Below are positions 17,234 to 64,000 of a DNA stretch of 64,000 nt, piece after piece. Position 1 is the stretch's first letter. Every line of letters begins with the position of its first letter. Source of the DNA: Marsupella aquatica. Its lineage: Eukaryota; Plantae; Marchantiophyta. The position numbers and the translations under genes are program-made. The stretch spans positions 7,799,079-7,863,078 of the forward strand of contig OZ316898.1 in assembly GCA_973895155.1 (NCBI GenBank), written 5' to 3'. The notes under the pieces are model-generated. The model saw only the letters and a list, made by a program, of their open reading frames with translations, was not told the DNA's origin and did no database searches.

Positions 17234-17283
17234 GTCAAGCCTAGTACAAATCATCAAATACATCAGATTGCGTACTACCTTCT

Positions 17284-22800: not shown

Positions 22801-23009
22801 ATAAGATGGCGGTAAGGAGCTTAGCAGAAGCAAGGCCTTATCCTCATCTTCAACTCCCTTACCCGGTTATGGCAGATCCACCGCTAGACTGTCAAACTCA
22901 TCCAGGTGATCCTGCAGCTTGCTCCCTTCCTTGAGCCTAAGGCTCATCAAGAGAGACTTCTTGTACAGCCGGTCTAACGCATCTTCCTGATACACGCTCT
23001 GATACCACT

Positions 23010-23357
23010 TGTTGAGCATAGACAATATTTGCAATGGCAAGCCCATGAACCATCCAACGCACATGAGTCGACATAGAGAGATACGTGGTTCACCTCCACA
23101 TGAGGCTACATCCACGGGAACACACAAGAGCTTTACTGCACTCTAGGCCAACAGGCCATACCAAGCATCCACAACACTAGCTCTCTGGGCTACCTCTCAA
23201 CTAGCTCCGTAACAATGAGCCTTAGTCCCCCCAGGGGCTGGCACCAGCCCTGACAATATACACAACAGCACTATTGCTAACCTTAGCTAAGTCCTAACTT
23301 GAGTTAACCTAATTGTGGTTAGCTCATGAGTCACAAGACTAAGAACAATACCTAACA
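23010..23357 (-). repeat. 5' LTR of Copia-A (348 bp)
   Basis: Adjacent to the tRNA-iMet PBS; TG...CA ends; TSD TTGAC. Confidence 0.93.
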
Positions 23358-29642: not shown

Positions 29643-29801
29643 GTGGTTGGTACAACAACGTGGGTTGGTACAACTATGTGGTTAGGTACAACTACGTGAT
29701 TAGGTACAACTATGTGATTAGGTACAACTACGTGATTAGGTACAACTATGTGGTTAGGTACAACTACGTGATTAGGTACAACTATGTGGTTAGGTACAAC
29801 T
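29643..29801 (+). repeat. 18-bp tandem array (about 9 copies) in the U3 of the Copia-B LTR, repeated at about 35753-35911
   Basis: Unit GTG(G/A)TTAGGTACAACTA(C/T). Confidence 0.93.
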
Positions 29802-37286: not shown

Positions 37287-40044
37287 TCAGTTGGGTAGTT
37301 GAGAACCAGAGCCTGTGGAGAATCTGTGCACCATGACATGCGTGTAAGTCTCCCCTGGCTGCACGATGATCGATGGGAAGTTGGGCTGATTCACAGCATT
37401 CGGAAATCCTTGGGTCTCAAAACAGAAGGCAGAATGCTTCTTGTACACTTTGCCTTCCTTGCCCACCGTGTGCTCCAAGAAATTCCCAGTGTAAAACTGC
37501 ACTCCAGGAGCATTGGTGAAGAGCTCCATGACACGGCCAGATGCGGGATCCACAGCTTTTGAAGTTTTCCTCAGATCAGTTCTGCATCCTTCAAATGCGT
37601 CCAGGGTGCCGCCCAGGACGTAGTTGTGATCATAGCCGCCAGGTGCCGGACCTGGAACCAGGTCTATGCGTGACATAATCGGGTGCTCTTCCAAAAAGTC
37701 CCAGGGAGTCCCTTTAACAGAAAGAAACTCACCTGTGGGAATAAACAACTCGTCCACTGCGGTGATCTGAGACGCCCAGATCTGAACTTTGTGGTCAAGA
37801 ATGTCACCACTTCCTGCTCCACTCAAGTTCCAATAAGTGTGGTTGGCTAGGTTGACTGGGGTAGCATTGCTTCCTGCTTTTGCTGACATTTCAGTGTGTA
37901 GCTCCAAGGCTTCACTTACGGTGTAAGTCACTGACACCTCCAAGTCTCCGGGAAAGCCTGGTGTAATCAGAAAATCTGCTTGAGAGCTTTCTGTGTAAAG
38001 GGTGGATAAGATTCTATCCAGTAGGACTAAATGCAATAAAGAAAGCCTCAAAAGAATGCACGAAAAGTTAGGGATACAACCTCGTATCGACGATATCTTG
38101 AGAAGCTCTGATGGATAAGTATTTGACTAAGATTACCTTCTTCACCATCTTTGCTCTGGTGTGTGAACTGTACGGAAGGTCCCCTGGAGTCTTTGACCTC
38201 CTTGGATTGCCAACGAACCTTGTCAAACCCGATAAGTCCTCCTGCCAATTAACCTCCCGCACACTGCTAAGGTAAACCAGGAGCTTAATCGGAAAAATGC
38301 CTGGAATCTTTAAGGCAAACTAGTCTTTGGTGGATTTACAAAATTTCAGGTGTCTAACTCTTCATTCTTATCTCAGTGGCCACTCTTTTCAGAAATCCTC
38401 TTTTTGTCCACAAAGGAAGAAGTTGACCAGACGTCATGAAGGTCAAAAGAGCCAAAGCGTCAAGGCATAAAATTCATATGGTAAGAAAATTTTCGAAATA
38501 CTAGGACAACTTTGAGTCCTGCGAAAGTGCTTGCCTTACCGTGGAGAGTACTTTGACCTTCATTGGGATAAAGGGTGTAGGTTTTGCCATCCAAAGTAAA
38601 GGTTGCCCCGGCAATCCTGTTGGCCACACGGCCTACAATCGCACCAAAGTAGGGCGATGAGACACCATCCTGCAGGCGAAATAGCAGCTATGTCAGAGAT
38701 TGAGCATCATTCTCAGCCATTCTCACACATTGGAAGTTATAGATGGCATTAAGAAAGAATGCAACCTATTCATACCACAAGCTATGACAGATGTTCTCCG
38801 TTGTTCGAGTTAAAACTGCAGAAACTCTGTTCTCTTAAAGAGATTCTCGATTCTTTCCAATTTATTGGCCTAACAAACAATGACTAGCACCGTATCGGAT
38901 TTTAATGGAAGAAAAACATTCAACTGAGGTCATCAATTGCAGAATCGCTTTTGTTCAGTTCTGGGCATTTTTCCCCACTCGTTCTTCTTCTCTTCGTCCA
39001 GTGATCAACAACGATCAGGATTCTCACAAATTTTGTATTTCACTCTCATGTCCAATACCTTTGTTTTTGTATCCGTGCAGGAGTTATAGTGGAGAGTACC
39101 CTACTTGTCCAAGGGGCAAGATGTTCAAGACCTAAGATGTCATATTTTGAAATGAAATCTAATCAGGGCACTTGGCAATCGTAAATTTTGGTATACTTCA
39201 AATTAAGGTGTCGAGAAACTCTCATGTAAAACTCTCCTACATAGAGACATTTATAAATTTTCCAGTCAGGAGACTGACTGACTGTATCACTGCCCAATAA
39301 AATGGCCAAAAACCATTTACGAAATGAAATATTAGTATGCTCGAGCCCACATCACAAAAGCAAATAAATGATGATGCGTCACATGAGCAATCCGCTTCAT
39401 TAGACCCAATGTAGGCCGGCCCCAGCTTTACACTGTAAGCAATTGCCCCAGAGAACGAGAAGGGGGACCGTGTGTCTGTGTTTAGGGGGGAAGGGGAAGG
39501 TGAAAAGAAATCTTGCCATGTAGGGAGCAAGCGTGTCAAACCCTAGGACAACGTCTGCCACATTCCCTGCAACAATCACAGTTGGTTGAAGCCAACATCA
39601 GCAGTAGCAGCGAGCGGACGTTAACAAGTAAAGATCCGATCTGTGCGCCAGATAGATTCAATCCGAACAGTGAACAATGCATTTTCAAAACGTTGGAGTC
39701 TTTCTATCTTCAATTGAAGAAAGTACAGTTGAACGAGAATGACTGATTGATTTTCAAGTTCATGGATTCTAGAGGCAGACCATATTGCCAGCAGACAATC
39801 AGGTACAGAGCTGAACTACCATTCAGTTAAGATCCCACGCAACAATGTCAAACTAAATTTAAACTCCACGAATCTGAGATAAAATTGGGAAAAGATACAT
39901 ACCCTTCGCGTCCGGGACCATCAGAGACATAATCGTGGCACCCCATTCTGTGATCGTGACTTTTAGCTCCCCACTCATCAAGGTGTAGATTCTTGGCAGT
40001 GAATCATCGTCACTCTTTTCCAAAACAACATTGCCTTCTCCCAT
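37287..40044 (-). CDS. Aldose 1-epimerase (galactose mutarotase), at least 5 exons
   Basis: Exons 40044-39903, 39566-39517 (GC donor), 38669-38540, 38241-38137 and 37957-37287. Motifs: WGATI, DVVLGFD, YFGAIVGRVANRI, LHGG, NLANHTYWNL, GYDHNY, PGVQFYTGNFL, FCFETQGFPNAVN. The true start may lie further upstream (acceptor-like site at 40099). Confidence 0.93.
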
Positions 40045-41764: not shown

Positions 41765-41827
41765 AGAGAGAGTTAGTTGTAGTTATTTCAGTTTAGCTCA
41801 TAGCCCATGCTTGGGCACCATACTATT

Positions 41828-43534
41828 TGTTGAGCATAGACGACATTCGTAACGGCAAGCCCATGAACCATCCAACGCACAATAGTCGACACAAAGAGAT
41901 ACGTGGTTCACCTCCATATGAGGCTACGTCCACGGGAACACACAAGAGCTTTATTGCACTCTAGGCCGACCGGCCATACCAAGCATCCATAGCACAAGCT
42001 CTTCCTATCTCTCAACTAGCTCCGTAATAATGAGCCTAAGTTCCACCAGGGTCTGGCTTCAGCCTTGGCTATATGCACAACCGCACAACCGCTAATATTA
42101 GCTAAGTCCTAACCCAAGTTAGCCTAACTATAGTTAGCTCATGAGTCACAAGACTAGAGCAATATCTAACAAACTCCCCCTTGACTCTTGTCTTGGGGAC
42201 TGGACTAAATGCTACCATATAGAATCCTCAGCGAGAAGTTCTAGACAATCACCAAACCAGGTCTCCCCCTAAAAACCACAAGGGTACTAAGGGTTAACTA
42301 GAACTAAATCGTAGTCATACAGATATGAGTAATCCATATACAAATAGTCGCACATTGCTAAATAACTCTACTTGCACTACAACTGCAAAACCTGCAAAGT
42401 AGCACGTTGTCTTGAGAAACTCTCCAAAGGAATCACTTTGGTAAAGGCATCAACGGGATTGAGCTTTCCATCAATCTTGACGAGCTCAAAAGTTTTATCA
42501 GACACTGCTTGCCTGATAAAATGGTACCTGATATCAATGTGCTTCACCCTACTATCCATCACCTGGTTAGCAGCCAAGTGAAGAGCACTCTGACTATCAC
42601 AGTTTAGAGTTATTTTGTCATGCTCTAAACCCATCTTCGTGATCAACTTGTCCAACCAAATTGCTTCCTTTGTTGCTTCTGCTGCTGCAACATACTCTGC
42701 TTCTGTAGTAGACTGAGATATACACTTCTGCAAGGTAGATTTCCAACTGATACATCCTCCTTCAAGAGTGTATACAAACCCAGTTGTAGACCTCATTGTA
42801 TCCAGACAACCTCCATAGTCAGAATCTACATAGCCAACCAACGTTCTATCTGATCTGTTATCAAATAGTAATCCATAGTCTTGTGTTCCCTTCAAATACC
42901 TGAGAATCCACTTCACAGCTTCCCAATGTACCTTCCCTGGATTTGACATGAATCTACTAACCTTGCCCATCGTTAGGGCCAAGTCAGGCCTAGTACAAGT
43001 CATCAAATATATCAGACTGCCTACTGCCTTCTCATAAGGAATCTTAGCTATCAGACCTTTCTCCACAGCATTCGTAGGAGAGAAAGCCGATGATAACTTG
43101 AAATGTGAAGCTAAAGGAATACTCACTGACTTACAATTTTCCATGTTGAATCATGCAAGTACTTTCCTCGCATACTGGCCTTGATTCAAGCACAACTGTC
43201 TAGTATCAGAGTTCCTAAAAATCTTCATCCGTAAGATCCTCTTGGCCTCACCAAGATCCTTCATCCTGAATTCAACACTCAATTTTGCCTTGAGATTGTC
43301 AACCTTAGATTGATCTTTAGCATGTCATTCACATAGATCACGAGAATGATGAAACCAAATACATCATTCTTGACTAATTTTGTATATACACAAGGATCAT
43401 ACACCATCCTTGTAAAATCTTAAGCAAGCATGAAATCATCAAACCGCTTGTTCCACTGTCTGGGAGATTGCTTCAATCCATACAATTAAGGACTTGAGCA
43501 ATCTGCAAACTAAGTTCTCTTGGCCCTTCTTCAT
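41828..43534 (-). mobile_element. Truncated Ty1/Copia 'Copia-C' (RT-RNase H plus 3' LTR), close relative of Copia-A
   Basis: LTR at 41828-42171 followed by the PPT complement AACTCCCCCTT. RT/RH ORF at 42377-43144. Homology to Copia-A stops abruptly at about 43534. Confidence 0.92.
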
Positions 43535-43539
43535 CTTCC

Positions 43540-45451
43540 AAATTTTGACAGGGCTAGTTTCATTTGGTCCGCAATTAGATCTGTTCGCCAGATATACATA
43601 GTTTGTTGGCCCTACCACAGAAGCGTACATACCCCTTGCCAGCTGTCTAAGCTCCAACGCAGATATGAAATTAACCCATCCAACAGAACGAGGCACAAGT
43701 TTAAGTTGCTTCTCGAAGGGGAATAGATAATCTCATCATAAATTGATTCGTAAAAATTTGAACCTGCACAGCATTGCTGTTAACCCAAAATTCCAAGCCA
43801 CATCTCCAACACACCAGCTTAATTTGTTCTTACATGAAATCAATGGAGATCTGAGTCCAAGCAGCAGCTCAAATACCAAATAAGCAGCTGAAATCGGCAA
43901 CCTCGTGATACAAAATTTGACAAACGTTTCATATATGTACTTCGATCGATTCCCTCCCTACCACCAAACTGACTCTAATTGATAACCCAACTCGTCTACT
44001 AGCTAGCGCTGAAATTGACTATACTAAATTTGTCATATATCAGAATTGGCATTTTGAGCTAGACCGTTTTGAGCTCTAGACCCTTGATAACGACAGAAAC
44101 GTACCAGCGGACACTTATCCAAGCCTTACCGTACCTGCATGAGGTGTTACTCTTTAGCAGAGCATACCCAAAAGCGCAGTGTCTAAGTACTTGAAGTGAG
44201 CAACTCACCTGGTTGCCATATGTAATGATTCACCCAGTTGTTATCAACCCACATGTAGAAAGACATGGTCTGGCTGCCGTCTGTCACGTTCCCATGGAAG
44301 AACGTTGCTCGTAAAAGATACGTTTCCCCAGAAACTACAGGCAGCACATAGCAGTTTCTGGTATTTGACGATCCGTCAAATACTCTGGCAGTCCGCGATT
44401 GCCTTTCGTTGATCCCGGTACTTGCAACGGCAGTCTGTTGGTTCCTTCCTGTCGAAATATATTTAGCATCCGCCTCCCAATAGATCCCAGTATTGTTGTC
44501 ATAGTAGCTTACATCGCTCCCACAATCAATGCTAAGAAATCCTGCGAAAGAAGAGAATGTCTAGTACATGAATATCTGACCGTAATCATATGTTAGAAGC
44601 GCCCAAAATTGTATGACGTTGTGATATATACATCGAAGCTTGCTACTGACTGTATAATTATTTGGTATTTGTACATTCCCAGACAAATAGAATTTTGTGA
44701 GCATGGTTTAGCCGTCAGTATATATGATTGTTTTCACGCTGTTGTACTCTGACTGCTGCGTCCGACAAAAGGGCAATGAAATGGTGAATAACCTGGTGAT
44801 GAAATCTCACATTGTCCACTGCAACCTGCAATCAGAATCTAAGTTTTCGGAGCAATTCGATCAAGTTCTTCGCAACCATGTTTAATTCTAAGTGTTATAA
44901 ACGATTGTAGTCGGCTTTCCAGTAGGATTTCTTGAGAAAGCCTCTCTTAGGCCATGAGAATTGCGTTTAGCTTATAAGAAACACACAGCCCGCTTTTATG
45001 TGGTTCGGGATCTAAATACAACTGGTACGTTAGTTAACAATGTTTTAAATAGTCCGATCTGTTGATTTTTTATTTAGCACATTATTGGTCAACCTGTCAT
45101 AAATTAATTTTGCTTGGGTAATGTCTGCTCCTACGTACACAAGACTACATTCAATTCGCTTGCACATTCCACTTAGTCTACCCGGTATCATTCTCTCTCT
45201 TTGAAGCTTTGTAAGTTCAAGAAGATTGTTAACTAGGCAGCATCGAATGGCTGTGTACTAATAAGTCGACATCCGTACCTTACGACCTCCATTCAACCGT
45301 CCGGTTAATTGAAAGCGAATTGATTGAGCAACACAAAAATTAGAAAACTTGCCCTGTGGTCCTTGTTGAGTTCCGACAGTAGAAACGCAAGCCAGACAAG
45401 TGACAAACAGAACCCATAGCGAAACCCTTCTTCTTCAGAAAGGATCTCCAT
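43540..45451 (-). pseudogene. Malectin-like-domain receptor kinase / receptor-like protein (LRR-I type), 5' exons only, frameshifted
   Basis: Exon 45451-45353 encodes a signal peptide (MEIL(fs)RRRVSLWVLFVTCLACVSTVG..PQG, GC donor). Exon 44541-44209 encodes GFLSIDCG...WEADAKYI...RTARVF...NCYVLPV...YLLRATFFHGN. Exon from 43763 encodes LCL(fs)FISALELRQLARGMY...RSNCG. It is then cut off by Copia-C. Confidence 0.85.
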
Positions 45452-48400
45452 TCCGCGTCACGCTCCTTGAACGGTCCTTCCTCAACGAGTGCACCATTGT
45501 CTGTGCATCATGACTTATTAGAGTCTAGAATCGCATCTTCTCATCTTATAGGCCTTCTACAGTACCGGTCTCAAGTGACTTCCCTCCGAGTCCCCCCTGT
45601 ACTTGACTCCCGACGACCATTCCTCACCCTGCAAAATAAGCGGAAGACCTGGGAACCCTTCTACAGGACGTCGTATGTCATTGAATGAGACTCCGCGCGC
45701 AGTATGGCCGATCATTTTAATTGACACGCGCGGCTACACACCCCCGACACACCCTATGTATCCACGCATTAGGGGTGGAAACTTTTTGTACAAATTAAAA
45801 TTTCACGTGAGCATCTCCTAATTAATCTGAAACCTTCGAGTGAGTAAGTGTTATCAAGGCAAGGAAGGCAAGGTTCTTTTGCCTTCAAGGCAAAAGACCA
45901 AGAGCAAGTGCTTGAATCACTATTTTTGGAATGAAGTTGACTTCTAGGATAGCAGCCTCTATCCACAATTGGAACACAGTAGCAGTTTGCAGATAAAGCA
46001 AAGCACCTCCTCTGAATAGACGGGAACCGGCCGGCTCTCACTTCACAAAACAAATGCAGTTCTGTAGCGTTCTTCAGTGGCTTTCCGAGCCTAGCTAGGC
46101 TCGGGAATTATAATGAGTTGGATGGCAATTTGCCGTAGGACCTGCACCCAACTTGCCGTGACCTTTTTGTTTCGAGTTTTGCGGTGCGCTCGCTGCCCAT
46201 ATGGCTCCTCATTAATTAATGTAAGCCCAAACAATCATCTACCCACCTATCTATCTTCGTCTGCTCTACACTATAATTAGCGACGGAAATCTACGGTCAA
46301 ATGACCAACTCCGCCATATACTTGGTCTGCAGAGTGAAGCATCTAGCCGTAACGGCTAGTTACTATTTTGGTAACAATCTTTGTGTATATTTAAACTCTA
46401 GCTACTTATGAGTAAAGATTGGCATGGGGGTCTGGGTAAGAAAAGTTTTGGGAAAGGATGAGTATGGGAGTCTGGATAAGAGAAGTGCTGAGTAGGAATG
46501 GGCATAGGCGTCTGGGTACGTAAAAGAAGTGCAATTTAGAGAATTCCTACATAAAATGGTATGTCCCTTGGATTGCCGTGACCCTTCTCGATCTTTGAGG
46601 CCCGTCTTGAGGTCTACCACCTAATAAATATGGAGTTGGTATAAACGCTGGCGATGTAAGTTCTCATAATTTATGTGCGTAAGCTGACAAAATGAGATTT
46701 AGAATCTAAATGAAATTTTTGTCTCTCATTTGTGAGGTTTTAGCTAGGATGGATGACGCTAGGATGAAACTCTACAATCCGCATCGACAGGTCTAACCCC
46801 TTTGTTAAGAAAATGGCCTGTAAGCCAACAGAATAGTGGCCGGGATAGTGATTTCCTATTCATCTAGCCTGAATTCCACCATCAAAACACAGCACTTGTG
46901 CATGCATCGCTACCGCACCGTTTTCACATATCGGAAGTAAAGCTAGGAAATAATGATTGTATTCTTCAGTACGACCCCGTTCCAAGTCTGGTCTAGCGAT
47001 GGCATGCAACAATTGCATACAGAAAGAAGCTGACTGCATCGCCCTGGCCATCCGGGTCCTGAGAGCCTGTCCGGTTGAATCTCACACCAGGTGCGATCCA
47101 CTACTGAATACTCGGTAGTACATGCCGAGCACACAGGCCGATCAGAGGGTCTGTGAGGGGCGGCCAGACATTTTCGTTGTTAGAAGCGGACCCAGCTGGC
47201 CCCACGGACGTATCATAATTGTCTTGATAGGGAGCCCTGCTTCCGAATGATCAATCCACTCCCGAATCCATTGCATCGAAGCATAATTGCTGACGCACAG
47301 CAGTCAAACTCTTTTGCTGGAGCTGAATTTGAGCTCCCTTTTCCTAGAGATCAATGAGACTAAAGGCAAACAGTTGTCTGTTCTCAGAGCATGTAATCTC
47401 AGCTGATGGGGTGCCCAACTGCCCACAGTCAGAACCACAGTCATCAGAATAATATATTCAGAACTCAAGGTTCTAACAGGTCAATTGCAATAGAGATATT
47501 TGTAAAGTTGAGACAAAGTTTGACGGACAGATTCAGCTAACCACGGATGATTAGTAAAAAGGTGTCGATAATTGGAAAGTAAACTACACTGATGGAAGGA
47601 GGTTGAGTTAACACTAAAGTGAGACGAGTTAGGAGTACAATGTAACAGGTGTCACGTTCACAATGAAAGTTGCAGGATTGGGTGTCTTTTGGAAAGAACC
47701 TCATCACGCTACGTACCATTTGCGGTTCTTGAGCTATGAGTTCTTGAGCTATGCACTTTGAGACATCATAGATATGTTTCCTTGCTCGCGCGTGCGCCCG
47801 CTCGCTCTTAGCACACCTTTCAGTTTGACTGAACTTCTAAATCGTTGAGGCACAGTGAAGGACCATGGATTTGCAACTGTTCCTTGCGCTCGAAATGGAT
47901 ATGGATGGTCTCCCAGCTTTAGTCGACGAAACCGATGACGAGCTTGAAGAATTCGATCTGTAGTTGTTCATGTTGATGTCACACCATTCTGAGTAGTGTA
48001 GTAGTATATCGTGCTATTAGAGTATGTACGTTTGGTATGAGTGCTATTGGAGCCGATAAGGTTCTGTCAGGTTTGTGTGAGAGGGTACTTCTCACTTGTG
48101 AGGCATTGAAAGGTCATCTTTCAATGTTGAGCCTTGGAGAGAGAGGAGCTTGAGTGTGGCTATGGTGGCTGTGAGCTCCGCTTGTGTAACGTGGATTCCT
48201 TGAGTAGTGCAAGGTGCGTTGGCTTGACATACGTGTGTGATCGGATCGGTGCGGGATCGATGGGGTATTGTTGACCGGGATCGTTGTGCCGATTGTATGG
48301 AGATTACATTGAAAGATCACATTCGAAATCTGCTGTACGGACTGTGCGGACAGAAGTTCGATTGATTGAGTTGTTGACGGTTCGTGGTAGCTCGGATCGT

Positions 48401-48576
48401 GTGTTGTTATCGAATAGATCGTTGGTATCTTGACCTGTATCGTTGTTGTCCGATCGGCCTGCTTCCCGATCGATGTACAGATCTGTGATTGGTGACAGGT
48501 TTTGAGTTGGAGGTCGATTGATGATTCGTGGAGGAAAGCGAATGTTGAGTAGATGTTGGACAGTGGAAGTCGATCT

Positions 48577-49180
48577 GTGAGGCTTCAGATCCGATTGCCG
48601 GCTACTGTGAGGCTTCAGATCTGATTGTCGGCTACTATGGGGGGCTTCAGATCTGATTGCCGGCTATTGTTGGACGATGTTGGCAAGGCGCAGGTGAAGC
48701 GACGGCTCTTTTCCTGAAGGAACGGAGCTGCCAATGCCCCGTGCGACGGTATCATCGACGGCTCTTTTCCTGAAAGAACGGAGCTGCCAATGCCCCGTGC
48801 GACGGTATCATCGTTTCAGTGAAAGAAACGAGGGTCAAAGGTGTTGAATCAAGCTACTACCAATTCTGTGGAAGGGCTGTGTTTTTCATGAAGGAAATCG
48901 ACAGTTTTCGGGAGCTTTTCATGAAGGAAGTAGTCATTTTTGGGGTCAGGTGTGAGGCGCACGAGGTCACCCATCCCAAAAGTGCTCGCGCGAGACGACG
49001 CATGGGGTCACCCATCCCCAAAGTGCTCCCAACCACGAGCGCGAAGTCACCCATCGCGAGCGCAAGCAGGCGCGAGGTCGAGGTCACCCATCCCGGGGCT
49101 ATTCCGGGCCGTGAGCGCGAGGGGAGGCACAAGGTCGAGCGCGAGGAGGTCACCCATCCCAGGGCTATTCCTAGCCGCGA
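48577..49180 (+). repeat. Short tandem repeats in the Gypsy-like leader / LTR
   Basis: An approximately 29-bp GGCTTCAGATC.GATTG.CGGCTA unit x3 (48577-48670), a 57-bp duplication (48701-48812), and GC-rich GTCACCCATCCC repeats (48965-49165). Confidence 0.75.
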
Positions 49181-49730
49181 GTGCTTAACTAGCAAGTTCT
49201 CATCCCACCTTGTGTACACACAAGCTTTGACAACTTGTTGTTTAGATTCAAGCGCCAGGGGGCTTTATACACTTCTTGGTTTGTTTAGAGACCTATTCTA
49301 GGCCAAATCAAAGGCTGTCTTAGGGTTTTTGATACTTCTGAGTCCATCTAGACTCACAGATTGAACCAATTTTGCCTTGGTTCTCATCTACAACATTGGA
49401 GTGCCATTGTGAAGCCTATTATGAAGGCTCTTCCTTGAACCTTATGCACATTGTCATATTGATTTGCATTTGCTTTTGTGTGGAGAGTTGAATGGTATCC
49501 ATTCTTGTTTCTGGATCCTCTTCACACATGTTTCCTGTTTATACGCCATGTTAGTTTGGTGTGGGCGCTTGATTCCATAGGAGTGATCCGGGTTTGCAAC
49601 TGGACATTCTAGTGTGCTGTGTATTTCTCTCTTGGTGATGTTGGAGTGATGCCCAACACACCATGGTGAGTGCTTGTGGTGCTGACAGGGATAGATTGCC
49701 CTTAGGGTTAGCACATAGATTAGGTTAGGG

Positions 49731-52511
49731 TTGGTCACCACGGATTCTTCTAGTGCTGCTGGATTACCCGATGGACGACGGACCGGTTTCACTCGGAGTG
49801 GGGCACAGTTTTGGCCAGCGGCATTGGTAGCAGTCAGTAGTGTAGCTTCAGACAGTGATTCTGATGAGGACTCAGTGACCAGTTCTCCTCATCATCAGGT
49901 GGTTGCACCTTTGTTGTGGGATATGGACGAGATGTACGAGGCTACAAAGGGCCCACGACGATACTCTGGTGTAGTTGGCACAATTGATTTGGATGACTTC
50001 ATCCAGGAGTTTGATACGTGGTGCGATATGCAGACATTGCGTAACGTCACGTTGTTTACCCCTTTCATGGCATGGAAGGGATTATTCCAGCATTTGGAGG
50101 GGCCACCCATGGATGACTACCATGAGTTTCGGAAGGCTCATTTGGTTGAGATTGAGGCATGGAGGCAGCATTGGTCGCCTCATTATGTGTCCATCACCTA
50201 TGGCACTAGTGCGGCTGCCCAACCCATTGCCACAGCTGCTGCTTCTTCTAGCAACACTAGCCAGAGTGGCACACCATCCACCAGCAGCACTCCAGCAGCA
50301 TCCACCACTACTCCTGTCGGTGTGATTGTGACAGGAACTGGAGTTGCGCCAGCATTTAATCTTGTGGTGGAATTTTTTGAGGTACTGAAGCAGAACTATC
50401 AGGGTGTGAGAACTGATAAGTTGAAGGGTCTTCAAGAGTTCCAATGCAAGACTGGAGAGAGCCTACGTGAGGCATACACACGTATGCGCAGATTGATCAC
50501 TGTCACCAAGGGAGTGACAGAGGCTCAGGCAGTCCAGTTTTGGTATGCAATTCTGGACAGAGAATTGCGACGCAGAGTGAGAGATGTCACTCTGCTTAGG
50601 GATGCAGATCCCACATTAGCAGTTGTTTTCACCCTTTCTGAGCGCATTGAGCTCAATATGGTGAATGAGAAGGTGGTGACTTCCGGATTTGCCAAGGAAG
50701 CACCAAAGGCTGCATCTACATCCACACCACAGCCTACTGCACGGAAGAGCCAGAGGGAGAAGCCTACTGCACGAGAGTCTACCAGCCAGAGACCTGTGCC
50801 CTCTTATGCTGGACAGCAGTCAGGATGTTGGACCTGTGGTGGGGATCATGCACAGAGATATTGTCCAGATCATAGAGGATCAGGGGGAGCATCAGCACCT
50901 GATCAGCAACAATGTGATCATTGTGGAGCTCCTGGACACACCAAGGATAGGTGTTTCTCACTCCACCCTGAGTTACGGAGAGGAGGATCCCATACACATG
51001 ATCAGGGAAGAGGAGGAGGAGGTAGAGGTGGTGGACGTGGTCGTGGCATGCCACATGCAAAGAGACATGGAGGTGACGCTGCCCCTGCTGTAACCGTAGA
51101 TCCAAAGGATGCTAAAATTGCTCAATTGGAGCAACAACTAGCTGCCATGGCTAGTTCCCAGGTGAGATCTAATTCTGGTGATGGGGCATCTACATCCTAT
51201 GGACCTTCCACATCCCATGGTCCTTCCACATCTTATGGAGCTGATGGAGACCTTGCCACCATGGGATTCATGTGTGGCACTCCACATATTGATGCATCAG
51301 CAGCTTTGACACGTGGGGCAGCCAAAGCTCTTGAGCCCCGAGGAGCAGTAGTGGAGTTAGATCCACAAAGGGGGGATACACGTCGGCAGACAAAGCTTCC
51401 TCAGTCTTTTACATTGTCAGAGACAGTTCAGACTGCCTCTATGAACCCGGTTCGGACAAACCCTGATGTGGGTAAGTTGGCAGAATTAGGTAGTGATGCA
51501 GCAGGGATGACAGGTACCTTACTGGGGGCGGCTACTGCCATAGTACGCACCCCATTATTTTCAGCGACAAACATGCTGAACTTGGGAGTTGGTCCTGCAG
51601 AAGTGTTCAGATTGGCAGCTACACTCTGTGAGGACACTCCAGTGGTTGCTTCCCATGCAGAAGCAACTTGCAGTGTTGATGCAGTGAAGACCATGCCACC
51701 TACTGCTACTAGTGAGACATGGCATGCAGCAGCAGCGAGGTTGGTGGATTTACCAGCACGCCCTGCATTTGAGAGGACTAGGTTTGAACCTAGTGTTGTG
51801 TCATTGGATAATCGAAGTGGTATCTTCCGATTAGTTGGGCCTTCTGGAGCAGTATACAAGCCAGAGAGAGTGTTATTGGATACTGGTGCTCAGCCCTTGA
51901 TGTTGGGGAAGTCTGCCATACGTGGATTGGGATTGCATCCAGAGGATTTGGAGGATTGTCCCTTTCCCATTCAGACTTCATTGGGGGGACCTACACTTAC
52001 ACAGCATATCACCAGGAGACCACTTGATTTGAGGATTCAGGAAGGTCATACCACAGATAGCTCACAGATACAGGCGCGAGCTATTCTGACTAAGGCAGAG
52101 TCATATGATGTGTTGGTGGGATGTACAGTGCTCTACCCCATGGGATTTATTCTTGATTTTTGGGAGGAATCAGTGTCATATAGACCTGATTGGCAGTCAG
52201 GAGATGCTCGATTGAGCAAATTGCCAGTGAGATTTAGTGGACCTGTGGGAGGCCCTAAATCCACACCATTGTCTTTGGCAGCATTCAGTGGTGTAATTGC
52301 TGGACCTGATGATTTGATTGAGGGTAATGCGCATGCAGCCGATGTTCCACCATTGGAGGAGTCTCATGAGGAGCACATCATGCGAGGATTACCTGTTGGC
52401 ACTGTTGTGCCACCAGTGTGGGGCACTGCACAGGCCTTGCCACAGGCAGCAGCACGATTGGTACATGATGCATGGCGTCATGTTTTTACACCACAGTCAA
52501 GAGTAGAGTAG
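49731..52511 (+). CDS. Retrotransposon Gag (two Zn knuckles) plus aspartic protease polyprotein; probable start M at 49923
   Basis: Gag-like DLDDFIQEFDTW and FQCKTGESLREAYTR. Knuckles CWTCGGDHAQRYC and CDHCGAPGHTKDRC. Retropepsin VLLDTGA...YDVLVG. Confidence 0.85.
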   Translation: MVTTDSSSAAGLPDGRRTGFTRSGAQFWPAALVAVSSVASDSDSDEDSVTSSPHHQVVAPLLWDMDEMYEATKGPRRYSGVVGTIDLDDFIQEFDTWCDMQTLRNVTLFTPFMAWKGLFQHLEGPPMDDYHEFRKAHLVEIEAWRQHWSPHYVSITYGTSAAAQPIATAAASSSNTSQSGTPSTSSTPAASTTTPVGVIVTGTGVAPAFNLVVEFFEVLKQNYQGVRTDKLKGLQEFQCKTGESLREAYTRMRRLITVTKGVTEAQAVQFWYAILDRELRRRVRDVTLLRDADPTLAVVFTLSERIELNMVNEKVVTSGFAKEAPKAASTSTPQPTARKSQREKPTARESTSQRPVPSYAGQQSGCWTCGGDHAQRYCPDHRGSGGASAPDQQQCDHCGAPGHTKDRCFSLHPELRRGGSHTHDQGRGGGGRGGGRGRGMPHAKRHGGDAAPAVTVDPKDAKIAQLEQQLAAMASSQVRSNSGDGASTSYGPSTSHGPSTSYGADGDLATMGFMCGTPHIDASAALTRGAAKALEPRGAVVELDPQRGDTRRQTKLPQSFTLSETVQTASMNPVRTNPDVGKLAELGSDAAGMTGTLLGAATAIVRTPLFSATNMLNLGVGPAEVFRLAATLCEDTPVVASHAEATCSVDAVKTMPPTATSETWHAAAARLVDLPARPAFERTRFEPSVVSLDNRSGIFRLVGPSGAVYKPERVLLDTGAQPLMLGKSAIRGLGLHPEDLEDCPFPIQTSLGGPTLTQHITRRPLDLRIQEGHTTDSSQIQARAILTKAESYDVLVGCTVLYPMGFILDFWEESVSYRPDWQSGDARLSKLPVRFSGPVGGPKSTPLSLAAFSGVIAGPDDLIEGNAHAADVPPLEESHEEHIMRGLPVGTVVPPVWGTAQALPQAAARLVHDAWRHVFTPQSRVE

Positions 52512-52640
52512 TCTCTTGCAGATGGACCTGTGACTCTTTCACCATTGGATACCACTCCTATTGCTTGACAGTATCCACCAGAGGGTATTTGTTTGTTGGA
52601 TCTTTTTGGTGGGATTAGCACTGGATTGGCTGCTGTTCTT
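52512..52640 (+). pseudogene. In-frame continuation encoding the N-terminal SAM-binding motif I of a C5 cytosine DNA methyltransferase, truncated by the CACTA insertion
   Basis: Same frame as gag-PR: SLADGPVTLSPLDTTPIA*QYPPEGICLLDLFGGISTGLAAVL. Compare DNMT3 IRVLSLFDGIATGLLVL and DRM PNGINVLSLF.GIGG. Confidence 0.65.
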
Positions 52641-53725
52641 CCACTAGTAGAAAACAATGTATTTTATGACCGAAACAATGACTATTAATCAGGTCTTTTT
52701 AACAAAACAATGACGCAATTGTTCTCGTCTTTCCAGACACGTCACAACGGACATTTTGGTCACGGTCCTTTTGGACAAATGACGCTAAAAACATGTGGTC
52801 ATTTCATACTATCCTAAATGACCATTTTTATGATATGGTCATAAATGTTGAACGGTCCAAAATGACGACACAAATCACCATCGACGGTCAATTGCCGTTG
52901 ACCGTCGATGGTCCCCGTACCCAATCACACAACGACACGTGGCAATAAAAAAACAAATAACATTGGTCATTTTGGACTTGTCCAAAATAACGTACATTAT
53001 ATAACAAATCAAATAGTGACACGTGGTTCAAAGAGGATTCACCATTTGGCAATATATTTGGGTCATTTTGGACGTGTCCAAAATGACTATAGTATAAACA
53101 AGTCATATTGAGACACGTGGTTCAATTGGGAGAAGACACGTAAAGATACACATTAGTCATTAATGACATGTCTTGAATGACATAAAGTGAGTCATAGTGG
53201 ACTTGTTTATAATGACCATGAGAAAGGTCATTGTATATGTCATTCTTTGAATCATTTAGTCTATGTCTTTAATGACCAGAGTTGAGTCATATTGGTCACA
53301 AAGATAGTTGTGAATAATGACCATTACATCAGTCATTCTAGCCAGTCATTTAGTCATTCAAGCCAGTCATTCAGACGAAGTATTCAATGATTTGGAGAAA
53401 TTCAAATTTAAGTGATCATGATAGATAAAACTTGATGTCAATCAAAAATCATATATTACAAAGCCATTCAATAGAGTTGCTAAATGAAAACTTAAAGAAA
53501 CATTCGATATATATCACAAATCTAATTGATATTCATACAAGATACCTTCATAAGTCTCACGGTAAATATTGAACTCAATGCAAATTTATGAAACAAAATT
53601 ACATTGACATCAATAATATTAGATTGTCAATTGTTACAACCTGACATACCAATCACTCTGCATGTTTATAGAAAAACAGAGTTGTCATTCTATCATGTCT
53701 ATTGTTTCTTGATAGAGTGCTATTT

Positions 53726-57088: not shown

Positions 57089-60000
57089 TTAGCCAATTCG
57101 ATGTGTAATTTTGGCATTGTTTTCCATTGTAGCATGGAAATCAACGTCTGTGTAATCACCTAACACCCTTGTGGACCTGGATTCTTTGTGGAGGATTGTT
57201 CTCCATGCTATCCCCTTCTCATTGGGGTGGAAGAAAACCTGCTCCACTTGCTTTGGGAAAACGTAATCCATTTTCTTGGACACACCCAGTTCTCTATGGA
57301 AATTCACCTGCCAAAGACCAGACTTGGTATACCTCATACTGGCTGAGGATTTAGGAGTCCATGATGGATCTGCCCATTTCCCTTTGAAAAGAATCACCTC
57401 TTTCCTCAAGCTGCCATAATTCAGTACCGAGATATCTATCAAGGCCCCTACATACTGTACAGATTCTTCTATGGTTGCACCAGACCTGTCCACTCGCTTC
57501 TCAGTGAATGTAGAAGCCATCCCAGAATCAAAAGTGCTGAAAGCACCAGAATCACAATCACTCAAACACCCCAAGGATGGAATAGTCCAGCTCCAATGGT
57601 GCCATAGGCTCTACATGCCCTATACAGTCGTGCCTTCAAACTAGGTGGTGTGGAGTATGCAGATAGTAATGACCGCTCAGACTCTTTCTCAAAATTATGG
57701 GTATTGACTAATGTTTGAAACCATTCCCTGAAAGGTGGCAATTCTTGGCAGTCTACGGGAAATTCCACTGGTTTTCTTCGATTGGCAGGCTTCCTCATCC
57801 ACTCCTTCCGGAAATCCACTCTTCGTTTGGTAACAGTCTCATTGGTAGCATCATATATCCTACATGGCAACAACAACACTGAAGACATTAGTGCACGATC
57901 CACCATGAATATACAAACACAATGGGGCAACATAATTATGATCCATATGCCTAAGGATAGGAGAGTTTCTAGGGTTTATGTACCTGTACCATGGAGCCAC
58001 TGTCTCTTCATTCTCTAATATATAATGATGCATGGCCATCATTTCAGACCAATCCAAAGTTATCGCCTTTGCAGCCCCTTCCAAAACAATGCCTGCAACG
58101 CCAGCATCCTCCTCCAACTCCCAGGTTCGTTTTCCCTCTCCCTTTGCATCAATCATGTATTCAGAAAGAAATCCCAAAGACTCATCTAATACATAGCCTT
58201 CAGCCATAGAAGCCTCTGGACGTGCCTTGTTTCGTACATAACCCTTCAATACCTTCAGGTTCCTCTCTATTGGGTACATCCATCTGCCTGTAACTGGGCC
58301 ACACAAGTCTAATTCCTCCACTAGGTGAATCATTAAATGGGTCATGACATCAAAGAAGCTTGGTGGAAAATGGATTTCCAAAATGCAGAGAGTGAATGCA
58401 ACATCCATCATCAAATTCTCATACATTGAAGGGTCCCACACCTTCGTACAGATCTGGCGATAGATATTGCTCACCCCAGCTATGGCCAAGCGAACCCCTT
58501 CATCAAGTAATCCCATTGTTGCCAGAGGGAGAATCTGTTGCATGAGTTGGTGGAAATCATGTGATTTCAACCCAGAGAGTTTCTTGGATTTTGTAACACA
58601 CTTTGCCAAAGAACTTGAAAAACCAGTGGGCCCTTTCAAGGTCAATAAAACCTCCAAGAACCTTGTTCTTTCCTTCTTGCTCAGGCAATATGGGGCTGGG
58701 GGCATCAACAATTTGTCATCCTTACGCTTGGGAGCTGGATTGGGTACAAGCCATAGGTGTTGGCGCACCTGTAAGAGCTTCATGTCTTCTCTCACAGAAG
58801 GAGTGTCCTTGGTCCCAATGATAGTGTGCACAATGTTGTGTGCAAGATTCTTCTCACAGTGCATGGGATCTAGACAATGGTTAATGAGTAGTTTCTGCAG
58901 TGGACACACAATTCAGAAATTAGGGCATTGAATACAACTTTTGGCATCACTGGGCAGTAGTTTGTGCAGTGGACACAATTCAGAAATTAGTGCATTGAAT
59001 ACAACAATTACAAAATCTGGGCTACAGGAAGTATATGAAGAGAATATATTTCAAAGTCATATGAAGAGATTGCAGTAATTCATTGTAGTAGTATGGAGTC
59101 TTACATTCCAATAGGGCAACTTGTACAGACCAGTAGCCCTCTTCACTCCATGCACCTTTATGGGGCATTTCTCATCCTCAACCTTGGTTCCTCCCTTCTT
59201 CAAATATTCTGTTGTCTCGTCTCCCCACTTCTTTCTATCAGAGCTTGTCATTCTACACGGTGCAGGTCGACTCTCAATTGCACCATCAAAGTATTGTGCA
59301 CTATCTGGTCTACGAAAAAGATGCCTTGCTGCTAACCATCGACGGTGGCCACTGTACTCTAATTTCTGCAAGTGCTTAGAACCACGTGCCACACATTCTG
59401 GCCCACAGATGACACATCCTTTGTATCCAGAGTGTTGTTGTCCAGATATTAAACCATATGCAGGGTAATCATTGATTGTCCACAATAGCACAGCCCTAAG
59501 GTTGAAGTGTTGAGACAATCCTGGGCGTGGCAATTTGTCAAAGCAGGGCACTCCTTTCTTCCACAACAGCTCCAACTCCTCATAGAATGGGCCCAATATT
59601 ATGTCTAGCTGTTCCTCTATTACTGAATCAGGTCCTGGAATCAGCATAGCTAGCATGACAAAGAACTTCTTGGTGGTAAGCCAAGGAGGTAAATTGTAAT
59701 TCAACAACAGTATTGGCCAGGTAGACCAAGCTGTGGAATTATTCCCAAAGGGATTCACCCCATCAAGTGCCAACCCAAATCGCACATTCCTTGGTTCAGC
59801 TGCAAATTCCCGATCAATATTTGTATCCACATGCTTCCAAGCCTTTGAATCTGCTGCGTGCCGAACCATGTTGTCTGTGCTTCTATTCTCATGATGCCAA
59901 GTCATGAGTTTAGATGTACCAGCAGTGGCATACAATCTCTTCAACCTGGGAATTATAGGGAAATACCGCACTACCTTCCTTGCCTGTAATGAATTCCCCA

Positions 60001-60964
60001 CTCTCTTCATCTTGGGCTGCTGACACACTGAACAGTTTTCTAACTTGGCATTCTCACCCCTAAAGAGCATACAACCTTTCTCACAGACAGGGATTCTCTC
60101 ATAATCCAAGCCAAGCTTTCTCAATAGCTGCTTTGCAGCATATAAGTTCTTGGGCAGATTATGCTCTGTAGGCATACCATGCTCCCCCATCAAAGACAAC
60201 AATGCATTCACTCCTTTGTTTGAGAATCCATGGCCATGACAGATGTTCAGCAGAAGCAACATGAATGACACAACATCTATTTTGCTGCCTGGGAACAAAG
60301 GTTGCATTGCTGCATCTAAAGATAACTGTGCAGGATCAGTCTCCACAGGAGTTTTGGAGGTTTCAAGGGGGTTTACAGGATGGGCACCTCCTTCACTCTC
60401 ATCATCCCCAAGTACAAAATCCAAGTCGAAACGGTCCTGATCATCTAGCTCATGCTCAGGGGATTCTTCACTGGTTCTCAGCAACGTTTCTTCCAGTAGA
60501 GCCCTGATATGTTCTTCGACATCTATAGTTGGATGTTCTTGAACATCCACAGTTGGATACTCTGGAACATCTACAAATAAATGTTCTTCAACATCTACAG
60601 TTGGCTGTTGTGCACAGGTTGCCTGCTGAAGGTTTGCTACCCTCAATGCCTCAGGGCCATGTTGTGACATGTAGTCAGCACCCCACTCTTCATCAGAAGA
60701 GTCCTGTCCCTCTCCCACCCACACTTGACATGCAGGGTACCGACCATGTTTAATAAGGTGCAGTCTAGCAGTATTCCGATTAGTCCTATAATTCCCTTTG
60801 CAGTTCACACAAGGGCAGTACATCTTATGGTCCCCACTCTTGTGGCAGGCCTTCTGTTCTCGAACCCACAAAGCATCATCACGATGTTGTACTCTAGCTG
60901 GATGGAAGAGCGGCAACTTTGGAGTTCTACCCACACCTAACGTATTCTGTGGAAATTGTGCCAT
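57089..60964 (-). pseudogene. CACTA transposase (Tnp2 / TnpD: Transposase_21, DUF4218, DUF4216), 3 exons, one frameshift
   Basis: Exons 60964-59105, 58894-57984 and 57859-57089. Motifs: CPCVNC, HAADSKAWK, RNVRFGLALDGVNPF, WTINDYPAYG, DPMHCEKN, GLKSHDFH, RWMYPIER, NKARPEASMAEGY. Apparent 1-nt deletion near 57600 (AYG[N]HW). Confidence 0.92.
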
Positions 60965-61564
60965 GCTAGCTTGATTGAAATTGTATTCAAACTATGATTT
61001 TCAAACTGAATCAGAGTGACATGCATACAAAATTGGGCCTACCGTCACAGTTGTACAACCGATGCCAACCACAGTCCAATTGCTCAAACCCACAGAGCCC
61101 AGTTTCTCAAATCCATTGTAGTAGGGCACCTTCTCCTTCTTGCATACAAATAGAGCATCACATACAGTGTCATCAGAATGATACTATGAACGTAAATCTC
61201 TGTGCCTTCATCATTTCCAGTATTTGTTTGCCTATTAGGAATGTGAGCAGACAGGTCTGGAATAAGTAACGTTTGTGACACCAGTGACAAATTTACAAGT
61301 GAAGTTTAGACATCAATATGGAGGAAAGTCACACTCAAAGCACATGCTTGAAAATCGGAATCCTACCCTGGAAAAGATAATAAAGTTGATTTCTCAAAAT
61401 TAATTGCCTCAATCCGCAATGCACTGTCGTAGAGTGTGTATACATGAGGAGTTCATCAAACTGCATATAAATAGTCCACATGTTTTAGCACTCTGAAAAT
61501 TGTTTAAGTCCACGTGAAACCATCAAAAAGCTCTATCTCAAGTTTGTGTTCCATCCAGCCTCAA

Positions 61565-62224
61565 TCAAATCCAAGATATGTGGCTCCTAGCAGGAGTGCC
61601 TAGTGTAGGGTCAATGTCATGGTCAGGACAGTAAAACATCCCCTTCTTGGGCTGCCCATGCGCTGAGTGATCCCAAATTGTTCGATCATGGGCAAATCCC
61701 CTCTGTTGGATAAATAGTAGGCAGTCCTTGTGCCATGCCTTAGGACACCTCATGCACTGAACCAAAAATCCATTAGCCCCATCATTGGGCCCCTGTCCAC
61801 AAGTAAGACAAATATGGAGTCCACATGATGCTGTGCCAGGAACCAAACACTGCCGACAGTAAAACCGGGCACAGAGAGAGTCTGGACATTTTCTTACCTC
61901 TTCACCAATTTTTCCAGACACATGGCACTTAAAGCAAGAATGTTCCTCATTCTTGCAATCAACACAAAGCCATTCTCCAACATGGCCATCAGCGAGGGAT
62001 ATAGTTGGGCATAGCCATTGTTGACCCAAAGGACAGGAAACATTCTTATGGAAATGTCGGTGGCAAGGCCCATCACAAACAATGAGATCCCCTCCCTCAT
62101 CACAAATCACACATACATGTGGACTATTCTGGTTAATCTCAATGTCTGAATATAAGGACAATTGAGGTGCTTGAGAGGATTCACCTCTGCAACGATTCAT
62201 GGCCTTCTGCTTATTGCGAGCCAT
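61565..62224 (-). CDS. Stand-alone EDM2-type (NSD-like) multi-PHD finger protein, 219 aa, inside the CACTA
   Basis: CVICDEGGDLIVCDGPCHRHFH...WLCVDCKNEEHSCFKC...CPDSLCARFYCRQC..CGLHICLTC...QCMRCPKAWHKDCL...IWD...YCPDHDIDPTLGTPARSHISW is collinear with the EDM2 PHD cassette, including its YC..H.ID..L.TP.R.H C-terminus. The ORF is intact and intronless, with a splice acceptor just upstream of the ATG. Confidence 0.85.
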   Translation of the reverse strand: MARNKQKAMNRCRGESSQAPQLSLYSDIEINQNSPHVCVICDEGGDLIVCDGPCHRHFHKNVSCPLGQQWLCPTISLADGHVGEWLCVDCKNEEHSCFKCHVSGKIGEEVRKCPDSLCARFYCRQCLVPGTASCGLHICLTCGQGPNDGANGFLVQCMRCPKAWHKDCLLFIQQRGFAHDRTIWDHSAHGQPKKGMFYCPDHDIDPTLGTPARSHISWI

Positions 62225-64000
62225 GGTCCTGCACACTCAGACCCTACATCAGATTGTGAAACAAGAAGGAATAACAGGGTGCAGCATGACACAAAAGAAT
62301 GAGGGTGCAGCATAAAATATGACATGTAACCACAAGGGTGCAGCATAAACCAATGCTTTATAGATGGCAAAGCATTTAGGACTGAGCAGCGCAAATAACC
62401 TTGGCCTATGATTGGAAGCAATCACAAATATTGCAACCTGTATGCCTTCGCTTGCTGTACAGCAGTGCTCACTCACCCTGCCTTTTTAAAATCTGTAAGG
62501 GCAACACAGAACAAATAGCAATTGAGTTTCAGCAAAGCATTCATTTGGCTCTCAAGTTTTAAAATGGACAAAGCAAACACAACAATGTGCACAACAAAGC
62601 ACAGAGAGCAACAAAACTCCAGCAAACTGGGACTCAGGCAAGAGATACGAATTTTAGCAGTGAAATCAAATCAAGATTCGGACCTGTGAGTTCAACATGC
62701 AGTGCTCACTCACCCTGCCCTTTTTTAAATCTGTAAAAATCAAGTTTTATTGTGTGCCTTCTACATCTTAAGCTACTGCACACATCTATTACAGAACCAT
62801 AAGTTGCTTTACTCTCAACAAGCTGCTGGTCCACCCACTTTTTCAAAAGCTGCACCGTACTCTATCTTCGTGCACAAATGACTATACCGGGCTGCTGTCA
62901 GAGACCCTTACGAAGAATTTAAAATTGACCAAGCTGAGTTTAGTTTAGTTTCGTCCAGTTTGCAGACCAAAGGAAATCATGTGGCTGTATTCATGGAGTT
63001 GTATTCATTGCTGTGTATGGATGTTGTGTGAACATCAGACAATTAGCTGTAAATTACCATAGTTGAAGAGCAAGGCTTGTACAAAAGCCACTAAGGAATT
63101 CTCTGAGGTGGCACAGCAGTTGGCAAACCACACACAAAACTCTGAAACTTTTTGGCGACAAAATTCTACAGAGTCGCTGCTGGAATCAAGTGAGGATTCA
63201 CCATACATGCCTGCACTTCTCTTCAGTAAAAAAAAGAGAAAAGAAAAGGCTATGATACAGAGGGATGTCAAAAGAAGAGTAAGGAAACCAAATTTTCATT
63301 GAGGAACATAGACAGACTAAGGAAAACATCATACAATGGAAAACTAAGGACTACATTGTAATAATAAGAGATCAAGCTCACCTTGCACCACAAAGATTGT
63401 CACGACTCACCTCGCAGTTCCTCGCAGCTTAGGTCCAGGATGACATTTCAATATGGAGGAAAGGAGTTTACTCATTTAAAACAGAGAAGGAGTGGCATCT
63501 ACAGGGACTTTGGCAGCACACTGAAAAGGTTGGCGATACATCAGGTTATCTTTCTAGGTTGACACTGCCAATAGAATTTTGAACACAACAAACACAACAA
63601 ACACTGCCAGATATAGAATTTTGAACACAAGGGTATGGCATCCTGATTTGCCTAACTCAATCAACTTAATAGCATATTTTTATGTTCAATTAGGCAGCAC
63701 TAAATAGAACAGCCTTTCACGCAGTCAGAATAATTGGCAATAATTGCCAGACGACAACAAGACAACAAACTGAACTGAACATAGCAGACAAATCCAACAA
63801 GTAGCAATCAGAAATCAACAGCAGACAGACAGAGGACAACTCGGTCAGAACTCGGGCACTTGATTTAGTTGTGGTAAATAGCCGTTCAAGTTCTGGACAA
63901 GCAAGAGCAATACGTGAGCAGACTCCAGAAAAATCATCTCTTGAGATTGAGGAGAAAGGCATTCCCCAGCCAGCTTACCTATGTCTTGAAAAATGTATCG

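Follow-up and report, generated by a model that had tools for sequence, protein, structure and literature searches.

A dead Ty3/gypsy retrotransposon copy in the liverwort Marsupella aquatica, with relatives that carry a DNMT3-like domain ahead of a conserved, probably leaky stop

A 64,000-nucleotide stretch of the Marsupella aquatica genome (hereafter the window) contains an element that is almost certainly a gypsy retrotransposon carrying a DNA methyltransferase (DNMT). The explanation favoured here, with a probability of roughly 0.6, is that this is the dead 5' half of a Ty3/gypsy-type element; in its relatives the DNMT lies ahead of a stop that is likely leaky, so that the enzyme would be made at the level of a coat protein and would likely methylate the element's cDNA. 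The relevant features of the window are as follows.

47977..48310, + strand: 5' end of the element, starting with TG; this stretch is probably terminal repeat A, its right boundary being approximate
48311..49718, + strand: 5' leader with short tandem repeats (families D11, D13, D14 and D15); repetitive depth in four of four runs
49719..52511, + strand: Gag-protease reading frame, stop to stop, 930 codons, first ATG at 49923
50814..50975, + strand: two CCHC zinc knuckles (nucleocapsid), from the translation and a tblastn search using the knuckles of P0002 (E 1.7e-17)
51783..52232, + strand: retropepsin (LLDTGA), 83% identical to the P0001 protease
52509..52511, + strand: premature stop TAG, private to the window copy
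52560..52641, + strand: start of the DNMT3-like domain, 27 codons, with motif I (SAM binding)
52566..52568, + strand: premature stop TGA, private to the window copy
52642..52654, + strand: CACTA terminal inverted repeat cutting the retrotransposon, preceded by TTC (52639-52641), as expected of the target duplication
57089..60991, - strand: CACTA transposase exons (Tnp2, DUF4218, DUF4216; PF02992 E 7e-66, PF13960 E 8.5e-36, PF13952 E 7e-5)

The first-pass annotation had the element begin at 49731; its 5' end lies further left, at 47977, where the first letters are TGTCAC. Read depth in run X1 rises there from hundreds to more than 100,000 (bin 47968-48081) and drops about 20-fold past 48309, and a read comparison in run X2 shows flanks that differ upstream of 47977. 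In relatives, repeat A is about 340 bp long. No primer-binding-site-like TGG was seen by eye after repeat A in the window's leader. Aligned over 943 columns, stops being read as X, the Gag-protease frame shares 51% identity with Marchantia P0002; the frame's retropepsin matches Pfam Asp_protease_2 weakly (E 0.011). As had been claimed, the same frame runs beyond both stops to a methyltransferase motif-I stretch at 52578-52640. The closest relative, P0001, is 75% identical over the 307 residues from protease to motif I and shares 26 of the last 27 translated positions, the sole mismatch being the stop read as X; four further relatives match at 19-23 of the 27. Nearly all read depth at 52509 and 52568 carries a different letter in four of four runs, and both premature stops are confined to the window copy. 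Truncation of the frame by a CACTA repeat was likewise borne out: the repeat starts directly after TTC, and sister copies diverge from the window exactly at 52641 in three of four runs (loose ends: X1, 30; X2, 12; X3, 10). The 64-kb window contains no second matching CACTA end and no tRNA. With two private stops and a CACTA insertion within motif I, the window copy is dead.

Since only 27 codons of the domain are visible, a piece too short for Pfam scoring, the 20 residues resembling motif I might be a chance match or a fragment of a host DNMT caught by a single copy. This is extremely improbable and is refuted by whole-domain homologues: the near-complete identity is to a relative with the entire domain, the same fusion occurs in named liverworts, peat mosses and algae, and 561 clusters match at E values up to 1e-30. 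A complete, non-permuted DNMT3-like domain is present in P0001 and in Marchantia, Calypogeia and Sphagnum relatives, and a PF00145 match, one of the checks proposed at the outset, lies directly downstream of the protease in 10 of 25 protease-region homologues. Motifs I, IV (PC), VI (EN), VIII and IX-X follow the canonical order in P0001 and alignment A2 (the window retains motif I alone), with RT-RH-IN downstream, so the attempt at refutation through missing catalytic motifs failed.

The domain of P0001 matches both PF00145 and DNMT3A. Against solved structures by sequence, DNMT3A ranks first (E 3.6e-11), followed by DRM (1.2e-6) and HaeIII (4.5e-5), and in a Foldseek comparison the P0001 structural model resembles the catalytic domain of DNMT3A (E 5.8e-16, TM 0.80 of target). 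Phage DNMTs are far weaker (30 loci, best E 1e-13). The 'DNMT3/DRM style' initially assigned to the motif holds for DNMT3 and fails for DRM, because the motif order is non-permuted. By sequence and modelled fold, the domain is DNMT3-like and nearest DNMT3A, with methyltransferase activity predicted. Among 80 loci, the catalytic Cys is retained in 75 of 77 covering loci, the Glu in 73 of 79 and the motif I Phe in 69 of 70; the motif VIII arginines survive in 50 and 58 of 79, being degraded in many genomic copies. The DNMT dN/dS of 0.12-0.16, from between-family pairs with finite dS, is similar to that of the protease. In sequence, the relatives' DNMT keeps its full catalytic set and has evolved under purifying selection. 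The DNMT tree was a quick one with phage outgroups only, and 10 of 86 full-domain proteins were excluded from it as gapped, redundant or divergent.

The order in relatives is Gag-CCHC-PR-DNMT-stop-RT-RH-IN-PHD, which bears out the proposed position of the methyltransferase between protease and RT; the window copy itself stops short of RT. P0063 and P0106 also have the DNMT before RT, whereas in P0239 it follows RNase H. Chlorophytes show a second layout, RT-RNaseH-DNMT-integrase-PHD. The RT-RH of locus L025 is best matched by Ty3 (E 6e-71), ahead of caulimovirus-type (4e-43) and retroviral (2e-27) sequences. The element had been described as an LTR retrotransposon, of which the gypsy affiliation stands and the two ordinary LTRs do not: in full-length relatives of the peat-moss type the direct repeats are split into A (as above) and B (about 115 bp), arranged A-coding-B-A-B in five full loci and B-A-B in three more, among 22 loci with the PHD end. 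The window shows the 5' repeat alone. The full loci showed no pair of complete LTRs with a tRNA primer-binding site, and by eye no TGG follows the 5' repeat. Ends are TG..CA, and the 4-bp target duplication is perfect in three of four distinct full insertions, with one mismatch in L041. An rve integrase and 4-bp duplications argue against the DIRS order, for which a tyrosine recombinase and no target duplication are expected. Troyka, considered because of its split repeats, was rejected as unrelated. Its ends are CG..CG, its duplication is 3 bp and it is described as confined to animals (PMC12440569).

RT-RH-IN had also been predicted to follow the methyltransferase. The order is as expected, but in the bryophyte-associated clade the frame stops after the DNMT and RT lies across a conserved stop. 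DNMT and RT share one frame in 42 of 56 loci, all 42 of which have a stop in the linker, at one column in 38. At the junction, 66 loci were examined, six lacking an anchor; a stop is present in 58 of the 60 anchored loci, followed by CAR in 56, and the remaining two have a sense codon at that position. The full CAR-YYA context is found in L011, L020, L025 and L026, with three different codon pairs, against a background of 21 in 8144 in-frame positions; three of five families show it, with differing amino acids. Weighing against readthrough, the complete hexamer occurs at only five of 58 stops. This is the leaky signal of tobacco mosaic virus (TMV), for which 6-32% readthrough in plants is reported (PMC2754532). 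The stop-carrying families form one RT clade (support 99). The conserved stop is likely leaky, with readthrough predicted: most ribosomes would probably halt to give Gag-PR-DNMT, while a minority would continue into RT-RH-IN. As the stop follows the DNMT, the enzyme is likely part of the abundant Gag-side product and not of Pol. The window's own family very probably has the same stop and repeats, because P0001, the nearest relative, terminates at the corresponding position, 51 residues past the DNMT domain. The stop, RT and repeats are assigned to the window's family from relatives that are about 50% identical.

Instead of readthrough, splicing of the RNA or reinitiation at an ATG 3' of the stop could yield RT-RH-IN, with the DNMT remaining on the Gag side. 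Ogre elements splice between gag-pro and rt-int. The commonest, peat-moss-type family has an imperfect hexamer, CAA CCC, which departs from the signal by one letter, and an ATG two codons past the stop; public Marchantia and Sphagnum gene models (P0004, P0005, P0006 and P0102), which are predictions only, omit the stop. Against these observations, there is a single in-frame stop and not several (L019 has a second immediately after the first), the CAR-YYA context recurs across families, and no shared ATG lies downstream of the stop, L011 and L025 having none in the first 40 codons. No common donor-like splice site was found at the junction loci. In addition, the codons immediately 3' of the stop are constrained: conservation over 30 codons 3' compared with 30 codons 5' was 19 vs 13, 26 vs 20 and 19 vs 17. 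Splicing or restart is regarded as distinctly unlikely. In six loci, no shared fold signal was detected in the 100 bases 3' of the stop (z -0.7 to -3.3).

Under the readthrough reading, the DNMT would be packaged in many copies alongside Gag and may methylate cytosines, probably CG, of the cDNA before or at integration, whereby a new copy might arrive resembling host DNA or limit its own expression. This step is given slightly less than even odds. The CpG ratio is 0.30 in the element's ORF and 0.22 in the neighbouring CACTA transposase, so depletion is no stronger in the element and this comparison provides no footprint of self-methylation; CpG depletion was rejected as a test, as it cannot tell self-methylation from host methylation. 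Alternatively, the DNMT may spare its own cDNA, binding nucleic acid without methylating it, or methylating host chromatin or RNA once released from the polyprotein. Consistent with this are the CpG loss, not above that of neighbouring transposons, the large target-recognition insert of the P0001 model with its low-confidence loops, and the KnitGypsy-Dnmt3 element of Klebsormidium nitens, which gave no methylation in yeast, a result termed inconclusive by its authors (PMC5890265). However, the catalytic Cys and Glu are retained across families whose synonymous sites are saturated, fusion to Gag would place the DNMT at the site of cDNA synthesis, and the related retro-DNMT3s of Symbiodinium are active, with de novo CG methylation (PMC5890265). 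We consider an enzyme that spares its own cDNA unlikely.

DNMT-carrying gypsy elements were earlier described from one alga, K. nitens, and the capture of the DNMT3 was regarded as particular to that lineage (de Mendoza et al., 2018; PMC5890265). In the literature searched, no report of such elements from land plants was found. Among 45 and 70 matches, none was a named protein from a vascular plant or from Physcomitrium, a weak negative because gene sets frequently have such elements masked out. A wider and tentative scenario is a single ancient capture of DNMT3 in green plants, with the domain moving within the polyprotein to a place behind RNase H in chlorophytes and ahead of RT in streptophytes, a leaky stop arising in land plants, loading at Gag stoichiometry and methylation of the element's cDNA; at high copy number, the elements may even contribute to de novo methylation in bryophyte hosts. 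Added here are the conserved DNMT-RT stop, its CAR context and the likely placement of the DNMT on the Gag side. The stop alters the expected dose, as a Gag-side enzyme would be several-fold above RT or integrase. As methylation mutants exist in the model liverwort Marchantia polymorpha, which contains these elements, the enzyme's use to the transposon is directly testable. Copies are annotated as 'DNA methyltransferases' in public gene sets and may confuse counts of plant DNMT3 genes.

Among known systems, KnitGypsy-Dnmt3 shares the PR-DNMT-RT-RH-IN order, the non-permuted DNMT3 type, purifying selection on the DNMT and the RT clade of DNMT-before-RT elements (support 99); its combination of a gypsy body with DIRS-like split repeats (PMC5890265) is seen here in peat-moss-type relatives. 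A K. nitens protein, KFL_009030040 (P0051), has a homologous DNMT (E 4e-52, 47%) but is a single protein from DNMT through RT, whereas the present elements have a conserved stop in a leaky context, occur in land plants (liverworts and peat mosses) and carry a C-terminal PHD finger. SymbioDIRS-Dnmt3 of dinoflagellates, the source of the cDNA-methylation model, similarly has a DNMT3-type domain in a retrotransposon polyprotein and A-coding-B-A-B repeats, but is described with a tyrosine recombinase and DIRS RT (PMC5890265), in contrast to the DDE integrase, Ty3-like RT and target duplications found here. A lone in-frame UAG separating an abundant product from a rare one is also known from TMV (UAG CAR-YYA; PMC2754532), whose context is shared by the three families, and from the gag-pol readthrough of MuLV (PMC5009743); here, the stop lies 3' of protease and DNMT and not of Gag, and its readthrough is predicted. 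Finally, the EpiLTRs of Cymbomonas and Euglena are gypsy-type elements with a cytosine DNMT, which is, however, sister to DNMT4 and placed at the pol end beside a DAM domain; their description keeps the streptophyte Gypsy-DNMT3 elements separate (bioRxiv 10.64898/2026.05.21.726589).

The polyprotein frame that the first-pass annotation had followed through two stops into motif I of a C5 methyltransferase, where a CACTA element cuts it off, proved to be real (49719-52640). It lies among the following features of the window.

13767-14405: zinc-binding dehydrogenase, host gene
~15800-23340 and 41800-43500: older Copia copies
29605-36014: Copia element; 300-bp repeats at both ends 100% identical, stops in frame
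37287-38126: aldose 1-epimerase, host gene
44183-44560: malectin-like receptor kinase exon, host gene
49719-52511, + strand: frame of Gag, two zinc knuckles and retropepsin (sequence, ORF translation)
52509 and 52566, + strand: in-frame stops passed (translation)
52578-52640, + strand: methyltransferase motif I, end of frame (translation)
52642, start: CACTA end, directly after the motif I stretch
57089-60991, - strand: CACTA transposase (domain search)
61565-62236, - strand: intronless ORF with NSD-like PHD fingers, CACTA region, upstream of transposase

In contigs from four public sequencing runs, both stops were private to the window copy, and in three of the four the sister copies depart from the window sequence at 52641. 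The 5' end of the element was placed at TG 47977 by depth and unlike flanks, and the first segment after it (~330 bases) is very deep. In one run (X1), 3761 contigs fell on a 1.8-kb stretch that includes the CACTA end; thousands of contigs on the element indicate a highly repeated family, depth not being equal to copy number. The window element itself is a dead copy. The CACTA element is of plant type by its transposase domains, and no second CACTA end was found within the 64-kb window; the NSD-like PHD ORF is probably inside the element. The Copia element at 29605-36014 is a recent insertion and a defective copy.

Ahead of the first conserved Met of Gag lies an open, ATG-poor stretch of ~70 codons (49719-49922), with a TRSG-like motif kept in the window and in relatives including the metagenome loci L011, L067, L072 and L073. 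Among 12 sequences compared, 11 keep it open over 56-99 codons and nine have no ATG in it; a non-AUG start or a spliced first exon is possible.

A search with the protease region returned 25 longer proteins, and PF00145, the profile proposed for checking the domain, directly follows the matching part in 10 of them. In the tree, the window protein and its best match, P0001, are sisters (support 99; 75% identity), nested among families from Marchantia, Calypogeia and Sphagnum. P0001 shares 26 of the last 27 positions of the window protein and carries a complete domain in canonical motif order. Among solved structures, P0001 is closest to DNMT3A both by sequence (E 3.6e-11) and by predicted fold (E 5.8e-16). 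The suggested DNMT3/DRM style is upheld for DNMT3 but not for DRM, which, like bacterial enzymes, ranked behind by sequence. Domain searches gave 45 and 70 proteins, with named hosts Marchantia polymorpha, Calypogeia fissa, three Sphagnum species, Closterium, Klebsormidium nitens and Cymbomonas, Scenedesmus being a further host of DNMT-carrying relatives. A profile search yielded 561 clusters with E values no higher than 1e-30; among 143 new top matches, 124 contain the catalytic motif and 100 a further retrotransposon domain. Comparisons between families show purifying selection on the DNMT (dN/dS 0.12-0.16); the catalytic Cys is conserved in 75 of 77 loci and the catalytic Glu in 73 of 79. 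P0082, a DNA cytosine methyltransferase deposited under a bacterial metagenome bin, falls inside the transposon clade with locus L025; its label is probably contamination.

Element anatomy was read from 80 metagenome loci, mostly of peat-moss type; one of these, L024, groups with Sphagnum proteins (support 99). Their domain order is Gag-CCHC-PR-DNMT-RT-RH-IN-PHD (PR, protease; RH, RNase H; IN, integrase), with RT-RH nearest to Ty3, so that RT, RH and IN follow the DNMT as expected. Terminal repeat units A and B are arranged as A-coding-B-A-B in five of 22 PHD-reaching loci, and B-A-B is seen in three more. These split-repeat relatives end in TG..CA, with a 4-bp target duplication that is perfect in three of four distinct insertions. 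In L041, L049, L067, L071 and L072, a purine-rich tract precedes B, and the internal B-A junction reads CA, two letters, TG, resembling joined linear-cDNA ends.

Many relatives' proteins finish 50-160 residues past the DNMT. DNMT and RT share a frame in 42 of 56 loci, and the linker holds a stop in all 42, at one column in 38. With nucleotide anchors (66 loci examined, 60 anchored, 50 distinct junctions), a stop was found at the junction in 58 of 60 loci, followed by CAR in 56 of these 58; the anchors contain the stop, and the linker result is independent of them. The full CAR-YYA hexamer occurs in three of five families with differing codons, against 21 of 8144 in-frame positions elsewhere. 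In the peat-moss type, five of the six letters match, and in L019 another stop stands where CAR is expected. Codons just 3' of the stop are more conserved than those 5' of it, and no shared ATG or donor-like site was found around it among the families compared. CAR-YYA is described in the available text of PMC2754532 as the TMV leaky-stop signal, with plant readthrough of 6-32%, and gag/pol readthrough is called very rare among LTR elements in that of PMC3441728. Judged from sequence, the conserved stop is likely leaky, which would put the methyltransferase among the Gag-side products. In the RT tree, the families with the stop make up a single clade inside the DNMT-before-RT group; K. nitens belongs to that larger group, and its protein lacks such a stop.

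A second element group, including Scenedesmus, has its DNMT after RNase H and before integrase, a layout of which no description was found in the accessible parts of the literature examined. The group is large (P0043-P0061, P0239, P0062 and many profile matches), has a PHD finger and includes Scenedesmus and Cymbomonas as named hosts. RT and DNMT trees each split the two layout groups; as these were quick trees without outside gypsy references, a single DNMT capture is not proven.

Translation would mostly terminate after Gag-PR-DNMT and occasionally continue into RT-RH-IN-PHD, which would make the methyltransferase abundant in the particle, where it may methylate element cDNA. In the model for split-repeat elements, the internal junction templates both ends; by analogy, the B-A junction would do so here, and integrase would then insert them. 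Against this mechanism, CpG loss in the window ORF (0.30) does not exceed the value for the CACTA transposase (0.22), the hexamer of the commonest family is imperfect and has an ATG nearby, and the window family is seen as a 5' half only, its 3' layout being read from relatives. Also against it, the K. nitens enzyme showed no activity in yeast, according to the available text of PMC5890265.

That text describes such gypsy elements from K. nitens only, and its species table includes Physcomitrella and Selaginella, with Marchantia and Sphagnum absent; two later papers, in the portions available, cite it for 'streptophytes'. No report of such elements in land plants, or of their stop, was found in the literature searched, subscription journals and Repbase being outside reach. 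The nearest named relatives, the malectin-like receptor kinase exon, the Copia elements and the plant-type CACTA point to a land plant, probably a bryophyte, as host. The proposal of a DNMT-carrying LTR family in a land plant, with the DNMT between protease and RT, was supported. The A-coding-B-A-B arrangement of the metagenome loci is the repeat layout reported, in the accessible text of PMC5890265, for KnitGypsy-Dnmt3, the DNMT3-carrying gypsy element of K. nitens. The window copy is of the KnitGypsy-Dnmt3 kind, in a variant that widens the range of these elements to land plants and whose relatives have a stop that is likely leaky.
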